Source of the DNA: a virus
Taxonomy: Duplodnaviria; Heunggongvirae; Uroviricota; Caudoviricetes
Length of the DNA stretch: 4,615 nucleotides
Virus record (IMG/VR): IMGVR_UViG_2548876963_000005
Strand: one strand, 5' to 3'
In this document: positions 1 through 4,615 of the stretch, piece by piece
How the letters are laid out: each line of letters starts with the position of its first letter
Position numbering within the stretch: position 1 is the first letter of the stretch
The notes under the pieces: model-generated
The model's database searches: none
Told to the model about the DNA's origin: nothing
What the model saw: the letters and a program-made list of their open reading frames with translations, nothing else
Translations under genes and position numbers: made by a program

Positions 1-34
1 AAAAAAAAAAAAAAAAAAAAAAAAACAAAAAAAA
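1..34. repeat. Homopolymeric poly(dA) tract (A25-C-A8) at the window edge
   Basis: Read directly from the sequence. The window begins inside the tract, so the true length is unknown. Confidence 0.95.
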
Positions 35-181
35 CATTATACATTAATGATAATTCTTTTTATTTTACACAATATATAACCCTATTTATGTTATGAGTTT
101 TTAATTCAAATTATCATTATAATCAATCGAGACTCAGTCATACTCGCGCAGATATTACTGACTACTCAATACTTAGTACAG

Positions 182-193
182 TTGTTATAACAA
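182..193. repeat. Perfect 12-bp palindrome TTGTTATAACAA in the AT-rich region downstream of stf
   Basis: Self-complementary 12-mer, flanked by TACAG (177-181) and CTGTA (199-203). Function unknown; could be a dimeric protein-binding site. Confidence 0.4.
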
Positions 194-246
194 TAGCTCT
201 GTAATCCTGTGTTACGAAGAGCGATCTAGTAAAACTCAGATGTAAG

Positions 247-3200
247 TTATAGCTCGGATAGCTTTAACTTTGCTTCAAGCTCCTCAACCCTTTTTGTCAG
301 TTTCTGAATATGATGAATGAGTGGAACAACCAGACGGTCATACATCACGCCTTCTGCAACCATCCCATTATCAGACGCTATACCTGGATCATCCTCGTCT
401 GTAAGAGGACGCCAGTGAACATATTGCGGTGCTATCTCTCCGACTTCTTCTGCAATAAGGCCATAATGTCCCCAGTCCTTTCTGTCCCTTTCACAAGTCG
501 AGCGATACCATACAGGACGAAGTTTCAACAACTCGTCCGCGTACCTGTTCTCTAAAGACTCGATATCCGTCTTGTATCGACGGGATGAAGTCGAACGAAA
601 TACCATGTTGTAACCAGCAACCGGACTTACGAACATGTTAGGACTATCGGTTGTTGTCTGAATGTCGAATATTTGCAAATAATAACAACTTAACGTCTGG
701 AAGTTTGCATCTAACGAGCCGCCTTCGAGTTTTGATGACGTGATAAAACTTTTATTGAGTTGGTTAATCTCCGATATGCTGTAAGCGCCAATTTCAAGCG
801 GTGTGGGCAGTTTCTTTGTGTTCAGTGCACGACGCCATCCGGGGGAATAAGCTGTGCCATTAAACACATAGATAAATTCCGCATTAGTGAGTGCGCCAGA
901 GACACTTGTCGTCGTGGCTGTTGTTATTCGAATGGTGTAATAAGTTGCACTGTGGCTGAATACTTCTATCACCGCCCCCGCCAGTGGAATAATGCCGCAG
1001 CCTGTTTCACTGTCTGGTATGGAGGCGCTGTCAGCGTATGCCCAGGCACAGCGTGCCACCCATGCTTTTGTATTGAAGGCACCATTATTCTGCAATATCG
1101 TCACTAACTGAGCCGTTGTTATTGATGCACCATTACTCCCTGTGCCTAACCAGCCAGTTGGAGATGCCGGGCAACCAATATTTGCTGGTGACAGAGAAAT
1201 ATTTGCCGAACCGTCAAACGACACGCCATTAATAGTACGCGCTGTCTGCAACTTCGTGGCAGTAGCTGCATTGCCTGTAGTGCTCTGGTTACCAGTCGTA
1301 TTAACACCAGGCAAGTTAATATTCGCAGTACCATCAAAGCTCACACCGCCGATAGTTCTTGCCGTCTGTAGTTTTGTAGCTGTTGCCGCATTACCCGTAG
1401 TGTTCTGGTTACCTGTCGTATTTACTCCCGGAATGCTGTCTTTTTTGGTATAAATCTGAGTCCAGTCTTCCTCAAAGCCATAACCATCACGCGAAGAACG
1501 GTAAAACAGACCGCCATTCTTGTAATGAGCGCGAATCTGGAGAGTCTGGCAACTCCCCACACCGGTATAAAAGTTTGCAACAAGACAGGAGTCGCCAGAA
1601 CGCGTGACATTATATGCACCGGATTCAGCATTCCACGGAACGGCTCCATCCGAATCCGCATAAGCCCCCGTCGCACGTAGGGCAAATGCACCAATATTTT
1701 CCGGCGTGAGATTAATATCCGCCGAGCCATCAAACTTAACACCGTTAATTTTTTTGGCTGCCGCAAGTTTCGTCGCGGTATCGGCGTTCCCCTTCAGTGC
1801 CCCGGTGATCCCACCAGTAACAGACAACGGACCTGAAACTGTTCCTCCGGTTGTTGGCAGTGCTCCAATATCTGATGGTGTAGGTTTCTGATGTGAGCTA
1901 TACATCGTATAAACAACACCATCGGTAACGCCGGAAGGCTTACTCGCTGAATAGGCTGGCGATGTATAAACAGAAACTGACGCATTTGCAGTACAATCCC
2001 AATGGATATTTACACTCGTCGCATAATTGCCAGTCTCAACGTAAATATCATATGTATCGCCGGATGTGTTGATCCAGGCGAAATTCGTTAATCCGACGGC
2101 TGTACGCTTCCACAAAGCTCCGGTAATCCCTTTGGGGTTTCCATTGCCTGCTCGTAGAACCAGTTCTGAAATACCTGCCTGCTGTGGGGAGCCGACGTTG
2201 TATCCGGCACCACCAATCAATGTGATGTAAACGATGGAACTCGCTTGTGGCATGGTAACCGTAGCCAGTTTGAACCACCCAGCCCCGCCAGAGAAAGACA
2301 TCGTTACTGAATTTAAAGTACCAATATCTTTCGGCGTTAATGTGATATCCCCAGTCAGTGCTTTCCCGTTAATTTTTCGGTCAGATGGCACCCTGCTGTT
2401 CGCATTGTCATTGACTGCTTTAACTGCCTTTGGCGTTGCGGCCAGCGATTCACTGGTGCTGTCGACAGCACTGCTAAGTTTCACAACACCTTTAGTGGTA
2501 AGGCTTGCGTCTTCCATCGCAACCGCACCGGCAATCTCTTCAGCACGATCAGCAGCAGCTTCCGCACGGGTCGCAGCGGATTCAGCAGCAGTTTTGCTCT
2601 GAGATGCAGCCGTCGCACTGCCTGCCGCCTCTGTTGCTTTCGTGGATGCCGTTGAAGCACTACCCTTCGCAGCTGACGCCTGCCTGATCGCCTCATCTTT
2701 TGAAGCGGACGCCGAGGTGGCTGATGCAGACGCAGAACTTGCAGATTCAGCAGCTGCCGCCTTAGAGGAAGCGGCATTGTCTTCTGAAGTCTTTGCATTT
2801 GTTTCAGAGGATTTTGCTGCCGATGCTGAATTTTTAGCAGCTGTAGCCTGATTCGTCGCCTCAGTCGCTTTTGCGGTAGCTGTTGTCGCTGATGACGACG
2901 CGCTTTCCGCCGATTTCCCGGCGGCGGTGGCACTGGCTGAGGCCTGCCCGGCACTTGTTGACGCGGCACTGGCAGACGACGCAGCCGCTGTTTTTGAGTC
3001 TGCTGCTGCGGAGGCACTCTGTTCCGCTGCCGTTTCAGAAGCCCTGGCGTTCGTCTCGGACGTTTTTGCCGCCTTCGCGGAATTTCCTGCCGCCGTAGCC
3101 GAGGAAGCTGCACTACTGGCGCTCGAGGCTGCGCTCGTTTCTGATGATTTTGCCGCCTCTTTTGAAGCCGCCGCATCCCGGGCTGAGGTGGCAGCGTCTG

Positions 3201-3888
3201 ACGCTTTCGTGGTCGCGGTGGATGCTGAGGTGGCTGCGGATTGTTGTGACGCTGCCGCGTTCGTTTCTGACGTTTTCGCGGCACTGGCACTGGTGGCCGC
3301 CGCACTTTTTGAGGACTCTGCAGCGGCAGCACTTTTTGAGGCTTCAGTGGCCTTTGTTGATGCTGTTCCTGCGCTGGAAGATGCTGACTGAGCAGATGAT
3401 GCAGCCTGTCCGGCTGACGTGCTGGCTGCGCGTGCTGAGTCTGCAGCATCAGTCGCATGGGTTTCCGCCTCACTGGCAGATGTGCTGGCATCGCTGGCTG
3501 ACTTCTTCGCGGCTTCCGCATTCTGTGCCACTGCGGACGCGTTACGCGCCACCTCTTCCACCATCAGTTCAAAACGGCGCAGTGCCTCCGGACGGGCATC
3601 ATCCTCCGTCATTGCGCCGAGAAAATCATTCAGCGTACCCGGCTTTGAATCCTCATACACTGTGATGGTCCCGGCATGCGAAGGCGGAAAACCTTCAACC
3701 AGCAGGGTGACGCTGTACTGGCCATACTCAACGTCCATACTATAACGCCCGGCTTCATCCGGATTTTCTGAGGCCACCGTGTTCACCACCACCGTGGTGC
3801 TGTTGCGTCTGGCCTTTAGCTGAATGGTGCAGTTTTGTACCGGTTTGCCTGCTCCATCTTTCAGTACACCTGAAATCTTAACCGTCAT
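247..3888 (-). CDS. stf: Side tail fibre protein, mosaic: lambda-Stf-like N-terminal half, tail-fibre repeat shaft, divergent distal region, C-terminal intramolecular chaperone (self-cleaving) domain
   Basis: Single open frame of 1215 codons in the supplied ORF track (247..3894 from a GTG). An in-frame ATG at 3886-3888 gives MTVKISGVLKDG..., which matches the lambda Stf N-terminus as I recall it (MAVKISGVLKDG...), and is preceded by GGGGTGA 5 nt upstream. Stop is TAA at 247-249. Protein aa 1-~470 resemble lambda/Rac-type Stf including the long Ala/Ser/Thr-rich segment. aa ~745-815 (VPWNAESGAYNVTRSGDS...GLFYRSSRDGYGFEE) also resemble lambda Stf. The C-terminus carries an S-x-R-x-K-x-D-I type motif and a coiled-coil-like tail. 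Confidence 0.9.
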   Translation of the reverse strand: MTVKISGVLKDGAGKPVQNCTIQLKARRNSTTVVVNTVASENPDEAGRYSMDVEYGQYSVTLLVEGFPPSHAGTITVYEDSKPGTLNDFLGAMTEDDARPEALRRFELMVEEVARNASAVAQNAEAAKKSASDASTSASEAETHATDAADSARAASTSAGQAASSAQSASSSAGTASTKATEASKSAAAAESSKSAAATSASAAKTSETNAAASQQSAATSASTATTKASDAATSARDAAASKEAAKSSETSAASSASSAASSATAAGNSAKAAKTSETNARASETAAEQSASAAADSKTAAASSASAASTSAGQASASATAAGKSAESASSSATTATAKATEATNQATAAKNSASAAKSSETNAKTSEDNAASSKAAAAESASSASASATSASASKDEAIRQASAAKGSASTASTKATEAAGSATAASQSKTAAESAATRAEAAADRAEEIAGAVAMEDASLTTKGVVKLSSAVDSTSESLAATPKAVKAVNDNANSRVPSDRKINGKALTGDITLTPKDIGTLNSVTMSFSGGAGWFKLATVTMPQASSIVYITLIGGAGYNVGSPQQAGISELVLRAGNGNPKGITGALWKRTAVGLTNFAWINTSGDTYDIYVETGNYATSVNIHWDCTANASVSVYTSPAYSASKPSGVTDGVVYTMYSSHQKPTPSDIGALPTTGGTVSGPLSVTGGITGALKGNADTATKLAAAKKINGVKFDGSADINLTPENIGAFALRATGAYADSDGAVPWNAESGAYNVTRSGDSCLVANFYTGVGSCQTLQIRAHYKNGGLFYRSSRDGYGFEEDWTQIYTKKDSIPGVNTTGNQNTTGNAATATKLQTARTIGGVSFDGTANINLPGVNTTGNQSTTGNAATATKLQTARTINGVSFDGSANISLSPANIGCPASPTGWLGTGSNGASITTAQLVTILQNNGAFNTKAWVARCAWAYADSASIPDSETGCGIIPLAGAVIEVFSHSATYYTIRITTATTTSVSGALTNAEFIYVFNGTAYSPGWRRALNTKKLPTPLEIGAYSISEINQLNKSFITSSKLEGGSLDANFQTLSCYYLQIFDIQTTTDSPNMFVSPVAGYNMVFRSTSSRRYKTDIESLENRYADELLKLRPVWYRSTCERDRKDWGHYGLIAEEVGEIAPQYVHWRPLTDEDDPGIASDNGMVAEGVMYDRLVVPLIHHIQKLTKRVEELEAKLKLSEL
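250..588 (-). other. C-terminal intramolecular chaperone / autoproteolytic domain of Stf (endosialidase-chaperone, peptidase S74-like), aa ~1103-1215
   Basis: Motif S1103-S-R-R-Y-K-T-D-I1111 fits the S-(D)-x-R-x-K-x-(N/D)-I signature at the self-cleavage site of endosialidase and T5 L-shaped tail fibre C-terminal chaperone domains. It is followed by ~100 aa ending in a heptad-like EELEAKLKLSEL tail. Recognised from memory of the family, not searched. Confidence 0.65.
1192..1431 (-). repeat. Two tandem 120-bp (40-aa) direct repeats inside stf (aa 822-861 and 862-901)
   Basis: Protein units PGVNTTGNQNTTGNAATATKLQTARTIGGVSFDGTANINL and PGVNTTGNQSTTGNAATATKLQTARTINGVSFDGSANISL. By my manual codon-by-codon count they share 36/40 aa but only about 85/120 nt. 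Confidence 0.85.
1693..1755 (-). repeat. Conserved tail-fibre linker motif, copy 2 (aa 714-735, KKINGVKFDGSADINLTPENIG)
   Basis: Same motif as copy 1, about 620 bp away. DNA blocks accaatat(t/c)tt(c/t)cggcgt and ccgttaattttt are nearly identical between the copies. Confidence 0.7.
2311..2382 (-). repeat. Conserved tail-fibre linker motif, copy 1 (aa 505-528, DRKINGKALTGDITLTPKDIGTLN)
   Basis: K-I-N-G-x-x-(L/F)-x-G-x-x-D-I-x-L-T-P-x-D/N-I-G pattern typical of the phage tail fibre repeat shared among lambda Stf, P2 H, Mu S and T4 gp37-type fibres. Shares short near-identical DNA blocks with copy 2 (for example cccgttaatttt versus accgttaatttt). Confidence 0.7.
2515..3549 (-). repeat. Low-complexity Ala/Ser/Thr-rich coding segment of stf (aa ~116-460)
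   Basis: About 345 aa composed almost entirely of A, S, T with scattered K, E, Q, N, D, G. The DNA is GC-rich and internally repetitive (gc[atcg] codon runs), which opens long spurious ORFs in other frames on both strands. Confidence 0.85.
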
Positions 3889-3891
3889 ATT

Positions 3892-3899
3892 CACCCCAC
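3892..3899 (-). promoter_or_regulatory. Shine-Dalgarno region for stf (GTGGGGTG, 5-nt spacer to the ATG at 3888)
   Basis: Minus strand GTGGGGTGAATATG. The purine-rich GGGG(T)G sits directly 3' of the terminator U-tract. Confidence 0.55.
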
Positions 3900-3926
3900 A
3901 AAAAAGCCCGCCTGAACCGGCGGGCT
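3898..3926 (-). terminator. Rho-independent terminator downstream of lom, immediately upstream of the stf ribosome-binding site
   Basis: Minus strand reads AGCCCGCC-GGTTCA-GGCGGGCT followed by TTTTTGT: a perfect 8-bp GC-rich stem (3905-3912 pairing with 3919-3926), a 6-nt loop and a U-tract. It starts 22 nt after the lom TGA stop. Confidence 0.7.
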
Positions 3927-3947: not shown

Positions 3948-4547
3948 TCAGAATTTATAACCGACACCTACGATGAAACTGTCAGTGCGCCAGTCGCCAC
4001 TGCCGGAACCTTCATAAGCGACATCAATGGCCACCGATTCGGTCGGGTTAAACTGCACGCCAGCTCCCCACGCCATAGAGGTGTTACTGTGGCGAGCGTC
4101 ATCACTTCCGGTCAGCACATCGTGCGTTTTCCCCTTGCTGTCGGTCACCTGCAGATAATCCCCGGAGAAGGTCGACACACGGCTGTAAGCCACACCCGCC
4201 ATCGCATACGCACTGAACCATTCATTCACGCGTACAGACGGACCCGCCATCACGCTGAACCAGCGGTTACGCACGGAATCTTCATGCCAGCGGGTATCGC
4301 TGTAACGGGTCAGCTGGCGATTCTTGTCTCCTGCATAGCTGAATGACGTCACCAGCCCCAGCGTGTCCGTAAATTCATAACGGTATTTCACGTTAATGCC
4401 CTTCAGGTCATCGCTGCCTGGCATATCAGTATGGGTCTGAAGATACCCGGCGCTTAGTGTGGACTGATGCTCTGCTGCGCTCGCTGGCGTACCAGCGGCA
4501 ACCAGCCAGACTACTGCGGACAGAATAACAGCACATAATTTACGCAT
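3948..4547 (-). CDS. lom: Lom, Ail/Lom/OmpX-family outer-membrane beta-barrel protein (lambda lom homologue)
   Basis: 199-aa ORF. N-terminus MRKLCAVILSAVVWLVAAGTPASA-AEHQ is a typical Sec signal peptide with an AxA cleavage site. The rest (STLSAGY...GINVKYRYEFTDTLG...SFSYAGDKNRQLTRYSDTRWHEDSVRNRWFSVMAGPSVRVNEWFSAYAMAGVAYSR...VGVGYKF) matches lambda Lom nearly residue for residue as I recall it, and ends in the C-terminal aromatic residue typical of OMP beta-barrels. Position immediately upstream of stf matches the lambda gene order J-lom-stf. SD GAGAGG lies 5 nt upstream of the ATG. Confidence 0.93.
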   Translation of the reverse strand: MRKLCAVILSAVVWLVAAGTPASAAEHQSTLSAGYLQTHTDMPGSDDLKGINVKYRYEFTDTLGLVTSFSYAGDKNRQLTRYSDTRWHEDSVRNRWFSVMAGPSVRVNEWFSAYAMAGVAYSRVSTFSGDYLQVTDSKGKTHDVLTGSDDARHSNTSMAWGAGVQFNPTESVAIDVAYEGSGSGDWRTDSFIVGVGYKF

Positions 4548-4568: not shown

Positions 4569-4595
4569 AATAAAAAAGGCGCCATTTCTGGCGCC
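4569..4595 (-). terminator. Rho-independent terminator upstream of lom (end of the preceding transcription unit)
   Basis: Minus strand reads GGCGCCA-GAAA-TGGCGCC followed by TTTTTTATT: a 7-bp stem (4578-4584 pairing with 4589-4595), a GAAA tetraloop and a U-tract. The lom SD and ATG follow about 20 nt later. Confidence 0.6.
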
Positions 4596-4615
4596 CGTAT
4601 ATGGGTTATAAAATT

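Follow-up and report, generated by a model that had tools for sequence, protein, structure and literature searches.

The question raised by this locus is what follows the side tail fibre gene (stf) at the left edge of the window, by which we mean the whole 4,615-nt stretch of DNA that was analysed. The stf gene (247..3894, minus strand) encodes 1,215 aa from a GTG start, or 1,213 aa from an ATG at 3888. The N-terminal domain of the protein matches Pfam phage_tail_N (E = 2e-72), and the stop codon occupies 247-249, the gene ending in S-E-L-TAA. As the first-pass annotation of this DNA had stated, neither the tail fibre assembly gene (tfa) nor any other reading frame follows; there is no ORF of at least 30 aa on either strand in 1-246, and stops occur throughout all six frames. 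That annotation took the AT-rich DNA after stf to be the probable edge of a cargo locus, at which an undescribed system might begin.

We put a probability of roughly 85% on the following reading. Positions 1-246 are most of a non-coding spacer that joins the stf gene of a lambda-like E. coli prophage to an acquired 1.35-kb cassette of one gene, encoding a nitroreductase-DUF1653 fusion, and a convergent hydrolase gene and a gene remnant complete the ~2.7 kb to the right attachment junction. It is built on the observed gene order and on the limits of the modules, on cargo that is rare and of foreign composition, on what differs at this junction from one related prophage to another, and on the lack of a terminator after stf.

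The window is the entire draft contig AICE01000093.1 (GCA_000447125.2), as identified by a look-up of the exact Stf protein, which is present in two assemblies: this contig and scaffold KB733108.1 of GCA_000352465.1. The latter locus, here L009, carries a Stf identical to that of the window in the middle of a 1.27-Mb scaffold. Both limits of the window are assembly breaks and not biology. On the right, the contig stops just past lom, on the 3' side of gene J; the left end is technical, because the short-read draft assembly broke in a homopolymer-rich, hypervariable and slippage-prone tract of the form (T6-25 G1-2)n on the gene strand. The junction was seen in 17 other E. coli assemblies, comprising L009, four complete genomes in which window 1-700 is found at at least 99% identity, and 12 further assemblies. 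No match to window 1-700 was found among deposited phage genomes, and the spacer motif had no exact match in the IMG/VR viral contigs or in a one-genome-per-species collection. A plasmid search gave a match limited to a short conserved prophage-end segment.

The right-hand 34 nt of the tract form the start of the window (1..34, minus strand). They read T8-G-T25 on the gene strand and A25-C-A8 on the plus strand, and belong to a longer (A6-25 C1-2)n tandem that is cut here by the end of the contig. As the contig end coincides exactly with the end of the A25 run, and the complete genomes contain interrupted runs only (A6-A9 split by C) and no A25, the run could be thought an artefact of assembly or sequencing. 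However, L009, which is independent and has an identical Stf, reads through T8-G-T25-GG-T7 and then GC in mid-scaffold, and its tract total of 43 nt is the same as that of the allele in strain A25 (locus L001). The A25 run is therefore real; an artefact is quite unlikely as an account of the window start, and as an explanation of the poly-A it is ruled out by the read-through in the independent scaffold. Windows that end in homopolymer-rich DNA can thus be assembly breaks at hypervariable repeats.

The sequence to the left was read from the assemblies that extend beyond the contig. The L009 coordinates put the end of stf at 13642 and the start of the following gene at 13995, giving a spacer of 352 nt; leftward of this lie a gene of 292 aa on the stf strand, a convergent gene of 261 aa, an ORF of 40 aa, and then ybhB and bioA. 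The same order is present in the four complete genomes and the 12 further assemblies, and the cargo spans ~2.7 kb from stf to the junction of prophage and host. Across the 17 assemblies the full spacer measures 327-373 bp, and the window covers its stf-proximal 246 bp (1..246, minus strand), which are the non-coding 5' flank of the nitroreductase-DUF1653 gene; by the L009 match, the start codon of that gene lies 106 nt beyond the left end of the window. Since the next gene lies on the strand of stf, transcription here would run leftward, as the first-pass annotation had proposed. Its suspicion of a cargo edge was likewise borne out, as in all assemblies that reach this far stf is separated from the attachment junction by the low-GC nitroreductase-DUF1653 and hydrolase genes. 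The leftward extension that it suggested did reveal cargo, but annotation for defence systems and effectors gave no PADLOC match and returned effector genes at one locus only (L024).

The 292-aa protein is a full-length nitroreductase domain fused to DUF1653 (Nitroreductase E = 1.7e-33; DUF1653 E = 4e-14). The match to PF00881 covers positions 1-167 of 167 in the profile and scores 116.6 bits, the cutoff being 23.5. The convergent gene encodes a generic hydrolase of the alpha/beta fold, 261 aa long (Abhydrolase_1 E = 3.7e-28). The NCBIfam matches of both proteins are all far below the curated cutoffs, and the PHROGs classes assigned are 'nitroreductase' and 'esterase/lipase'. The nitroreductase gene is preceded by a Shine-Dalgarno (SD) sequence, GAGGT, 6 nt before its ATG. 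A GC-rich hairpin without a T run lies between the two convergent genes (L001 13869-13891). The 40-aa ORF (L001 12593-12715), annotated as 'ferredoxin', overlaps a stretch that is 83.5% matched by a YkgJ-family cysteine-cluster gene of another strain, and on this sequence match it looks like a gene remnant.

Residues 3-183 of the fusion align to PDB 3bem and 4qlx (E = 1e-25 to 1e-24), which are YdfN and the enone reductase CLA-ER respectively, and residues 216-289 align to 3be3 (E = 1.7e-24), a structural-genomics protein of the DUF1653 family. The closest solved relatives of the nitroreductase domain are thus FMN nitroreductases of the YdfN/CLA-ER type, from which the cargo protein differs in being a rare fusion with DUF1653. 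Both domains are present in 17 of the best 120 clusters (of ~7,000 matches), the other clusters being stand-alone nitroreductases of ~200 aa. Full-length homologues of the fusion, 55-70% identical, are found among the matches listed in Serratia, Enterobacter mori, Vibrio, Enterovibrio and Burkholderia. No deposited phage genome was found to encode the fused protein, the best match being a nitroreductase domain of 47% identity in an Acinetobacter phage record, and DUF1653 appeared in the searched literature as one incidental entry in a proteomics table. Most probably the nitroreductase uses NAD(P)H to reduce quinone, nitro or enone compounds, which would be to the benefit of the lysogen.

The position of this cargo in a prophage end that is a known hotspot, together with the rarity and low GC of genes borne by prophages at several integration sites, would fit the proposal of an undescribed anti-phage system, for defence or counter-defence, that consists of either enzyme or of both. 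We regard this as very improbable. No model in PADLOC-DB 2.0 was matched at E <= 0.1 by the nitroreductase-DUF1653 protein, the hydrolase or the 40-aa ORF. The genes are also unlinked: the nitroreductase gene is carried by 4 of 5,426 complete E. coli genomes and the hydrolase gene by 30, in 26 of which it occurs without the nitroreductase. Homologues of the fusion are solitary in unrelated contexts, with no conserved partner gene in the three that were compared (Serratia, E. mori and a sequencing-run assembly), where the neighbours are fimbrial genes, NRPS/PKS genes, a resolvase, toxin-antitoxin genes and ispG. Furthermore, many environmental bacteria have ordinary nitroreductases of 200 aa to which the nitroreductase domain of the fusion is 53-59% identical. 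The cargo is two independent and already annotated enzyme genes and no new system, and with the host junction reached after ~2.7 kb, the undescribed system imagined to begin at this point is not there.

The composition of the spacer sets it apart from the remainder of the window. The GC content of 1-246 is 25.2%, compared to 52% for the rest, and the lowest value in any other 246-nt stretch of the contig is 40.2% (mean 52.5%, sd 5.5). In this respect the AT-rich switch described after stf was correctly noted, but it is not sharp; GC falls stepwise, from 44.5% in the last ~450 nt of stf, where the drop begins, to 30-40% in 126-250 and 8-18% in 1-125. Taken singly, the values are 51.7% for stf, 27.8% for the spacer and 37.8% for the nitroreductase gene.

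The end of the prophage itself, or a decayed tfa or other phage gene, could also be imagined as the origin of this AT-rich stretch, and tfa or fragments of it do occupy the equivalent place in related prophages. A sensitive blastn of window 37-262 against 5,426 complete E. coli genomes recovered only the four with the same junction, and no diverged copy of the spacer elsewhere in them; the spacer occurs only together with the nitroreductase gene. All frames are closed in 1-246, and the attachment core lies 2.7 kb further left. We therefore find this origin barely credible, and a further argument against a lost tfa is supplied by Stf itself, as its type of fibre needs no Tfa.

The C-terminal intramolecular chaperone region of Stf (250..588, minus strand) consists of a Peptidase_S74 domain at residues 1103-1159 (window 418-588) and a helical tail that runs to the C-terminus. 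The domain scores 33.8 bits with PF13884, for which the cutoff is 22, and aligns to positions 1-57 of the 58 in that profile; at the position of the family's cleavage serine the region contains the motif S-S-R-R-Y-K-T-D-I. Fibres of the S74 type, such as the K1F endosialidase and T5 pb1, bring their own chaperone for folding, which is later cleaved off, and need no separate Tfa. The homologous domain, ICA, has been reviewed (PMC8326128). The Stf of the window resembles the K1F endosialidase and the L-shaped fibre protein pb1 of T5 in the essentially full-length S74 match at its C-terminus and in having no separate tfa after its gene; it differs in that it is a member by sequence, its self-cleavage being only predicted. 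Lambda is unlike it, as its own Stf uses a separate Tfa, and when the locus was examined for a lambda-type stf-tfa pair, tfa was absent directly downstream and the next gene was that for the nitroreductase. The absence of tfa is best explained by the predicted chaperone domain of Stf, since with this domain inside the fibre protein no Tfa would be needed. The missing gene, which had been counted as part of the anomaly, loses that meaning here, and a missing tfa alone should not be taken as a sign of cargo.

Two further features of Stf were observed. Its length varies among strains with the same ends (1,108, 1,201 and 1,213 aa), the difference lying in the repetitive shaft rich in Ala, Ser and Thr at window ~2500-3550. 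The receptor-binding part (window 790-1047, residues ~950-1035) resembles the tail fibre protein S of phage Mu (PDB 8ju3, E = 1.6e-19).

The boundaries of the cargo were determined by comparison with other prophages. In strain A25 the lambda att core TTAGTATAAAAAAGC is found at L001 12275, where it adjoins ybhB, and the cargo is therefore inside the prophage; the sequence after the core is presumably the lambda attP arm. In pairwise comparison the nitroreductase cassette corresponds to L001 13906-15261, ~1.35 kb that are unique to this lineage. Its left boundary is where homology to prophages bearing the hydrolase but not the nitroreductase ends (L001 13905-13913); on the right it gives way at L001 15262, equal to window 262, to sequence that is homologous to other S74-type fibres. 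For the fibres of SE11 and A30, this limit of homology is 13 nt inside the stop codon of stf. Prophages with the same stf and cargo occur in three chromosomal settings: at ybhB, at prfC, and at an integrase gene whose neighbour is of the Dus family.

Related prophages have different content after stf, which is the hotspot signature that the first-pass annotation had looked to such a comparison to show, and the content directly to the left is variable cargo and neither conserved phage genes nor the host junction. SE11 and A30 have a second tail fibre gene and a DUF4376 gene after the S74-type fibre. A hydrolase segment of 88-90% identity is present in other prophages, among them those of APEC O1 and an O8:H8 strain, where the hydrolase gene comes directly after a remnant of tfa or of a DUF4376 gene (a tfa remnant in APEC O1) with no nitroreductase. 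L024, with the same stf and cargo, has NleH-type (OspG_kinase) and NleD-type (Peptidase_M91) genes between the hydrolase gene and ybhB. This mosaic pattern is as expected of a known accessory slot at the end of lambdoid prophages, and the cargo occupies the place of the lambda b region, where accessory genes are known to reside. Like other accessory cargo of prophages, the nitroreductase cassette lies inside the prophage, is absent at this position in related phages and deviates in composition.

Several observations on the same prophage end may be recorded beside these. At the SE11 and A30 loci (L005 6037-10796 and L006 5732-10796), the S74 fibre gene is interrupted or split, and after it come a fragment of tfa, a second tail fibre gene, which is complete, and the DUF4376 gene. 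The effector genes of L024 (8936-9817 and 10048-10746) constitute a second variable slot at the same end of the prophage. An unannotated stretch of ~195 bp near the prophage end (L001 12480-12674) has matches of 80-95% identity in ~2,980 of 5,426 E. coli genomes; many Stx phage records also match it close to the right end, at ~74% in the aligned part.

Two known kinds of cargo at this position are useful for comparison. In their placement between conserved modules near the prophage end, as non-essential low-GC genes whose content varies between related prophages, the cargo genes resemble the lambda morons and the b-region slot (lom and bor; the interval from stf/tfa to attP). They are unlike them in kind, as neither a nitroreductase-DUF1653 fusion nor an alpha/beta hydrolase is among the lambda accessory genes described, and in that no clear pair of promoter and terminator surrounds the nitroreductase gene. 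In the lambdoid prophages of EHEC and EPEC, Tobe et al. reportedly described in 2006 exchangeable effector loci that lie after the tail fibre genes. The prophage position is the same, and the NleH/NleD-type genes of L024 bring that locus close to them; on the other hand, L009, with a Stf identical to that of the window, has no effector genes there, and the genes adjoining stf are enzymes of a metabolic type. Type III effector genes were absent from the junction in L009 and the 15 other loci compared, L024 being the only one to have them.

The other end of the window holds a cargo gene of the classical lambda kind, lom (3948..4547, minus strand), which encodes an outer-membrane protein of the Ail/Lom family (Pfam Ail_Lom E = 9.5e-122). 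Two intrinsic terminators bracket it, as is classically described for lambda morons. One lies upstream, after gene J (4577..4596, minus strand), and was found by the terminator scan. The other, between lom and stf (3900..3925, minus strand), was read by eye from the sequence as GCCCGCC-GGTTCA-GGCGGGC followed by T6, 5 nt before the GTG start of stf; it is not in the scan list, probably as A/T pairing lengthens the stem so that it takes in part of the T run.

How the cargo gene would be transcribed was considered from the signals in the spacer. The same scan found no terminator between stf and the nitroreductase gene, and for this reason the late transcript should run into that gene; by analogy with lambda, an antiterminated late transcript would read through into the cargo during lytic growth. 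In a lysogen the gene may instead be expressed from a weak promoter in the AT-rich spacer, for which there are three candidate -10 elements. The first-pass annotation had pointed to a perfect TATAAT at 116..121 (minus strand) without a convincing -35, and this is correct, the best -35 match being 2/6; a second perfect TATAAT was overlooked at 36..41 (minus strand), abutting the tract, with a best -35 match of 3/6, and it is mutated to TATGAT in L024. The third is a GATAAT 45 nt before the nitroreductase start codon, outside the window. The best -35 matches for these spacer candidates reach only 2-4/6, and a scan for consensus promoters found none on the minus (gene) strand of the spacer. The whole window contains four TATAAT matches, a count reached by 8 of 200 shuffles and so not remarkable.

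The remaining signals in the spacer were weighed separately. A plus-strand promoter match at 64-92 was rejected, being within the number expected by chance. A 14-bp perfect palindrome, GTTGTTATAACAAC, is located at 181-194, 53 nt after the stf stop; it is without a T run and was not called a terminator. An Rfam search of both strands of the extended spacer and cargo at E <= 1 gave only a chance-level match to an archaeal snoRNA, and the RNA fold of the spacer is not unusual (z = -0.9).

The tract at the left end of the window has properties of its own. On the gene strand it is an irregular tandem (T6-25 G1-2)n, at 13855-13897 in L009 and 14992-15034 in L001, and it is positioned 100-145 nt upstream of the nitroreductase start codon, after a TATAAT. 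Ten length alleles of 18-64 nt are present among the 17 loci, ranging from T8-GG-T8 to seven T6-9 G1-2 units (in L003, TRF reports a period of 9-10 with 7 copies), and some of the single-base differences between these alleles could be homopolymer sequencing errors. The flanks are near-invariant in the same loci, with 0-3 differences in 215 nt before the tract and 0-3 in 989 nt after it. The tract is slippage-prone DNA whose length changes faster than the sequence of its flanks, and it is genuinely hypermutable, because differences in unit number (2 to 7) cannot be sequencing error. A second, 9-nt tandem repeat, ATCAACACC, is present in 3.8 copies outside the window, at L003 7918-7952 (~L001 14935-14975), between the T-rich tract and the nitroreductase start; its gene strand consists of repeated GTNTTGATG units.

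An ATG at 35..37 (minus strand), inside TATAATG and overlapping the -10-like hexamer, opens a Phe-rich frame through the tract. In 5 of the 10 alleles this frame is 40-55 codons long and its stop overlaps the nitroreductase start codon as ATGA, and in the other five it is broken; five in frame, where a third would be expected by chance, gives a binomial p of ~0.2. The ORF has no SD sequence at its ATG and no match in Pfam or NCBIfam. With the frame not conserved (five in, five out), no SD and no family, it was rejected as a real upstream gene; it is probably not a gene, and is regarded as a by-product of the poly-T sequence.

Whether the tract could nevertheless act as a contingency switch or rheostat depends on slippage altering expression of the nitroreductase-DUF1653 gene, which might occur through promoter geometry, through the length of the 5' leader, or through the frame of a translationally coupled Phe-rich uORF. 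The wealth of alleles between almost invariant flanks and the placement of the tract between a perfect TATAAT and the gene speak for this, and so does the exactness with which the ORF from TATAATG ends in ATGA at the nitroreductase start in five alleles. Against the coupled frame stand its disruption in the other five (p ~0.2), the lack of an SD at the upstream ATG, whereas the nitroreductase gene has a good one of its own, and the lack of any family match for the Phe-rich peptide; homologues of the nitroreductase in other genera, moreover, have no such tract. We hold a regulatory role to be a tentative and rather unlikely possibility. The tract resembles the simple-sequence contingency loci of Haemophilus, Neisseria and Campylobacter in being a homopolymer-rich tandem just upstream of a gene, with many length alleles among near-identical strains. 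It differs from them in its irregular unit (T6-25 and then one or two G), and the effect on expression is here only postulated.

With the spacer read as the non-coding link between stf and an acquired one-gene cassette, the junction is unexceptional among the accessory-gene slots that lambdoid prophages have at their ends, and of the whole locus only the repeat tract merits an experiment. Contingency switches based on repeats are uncommon in E. coli, where phase variation normally proceeds by DNA inversion or methylation. Should tract length prove to tune the cargo gene, this would be a repeat-based switch of a kind that is rare in the species.
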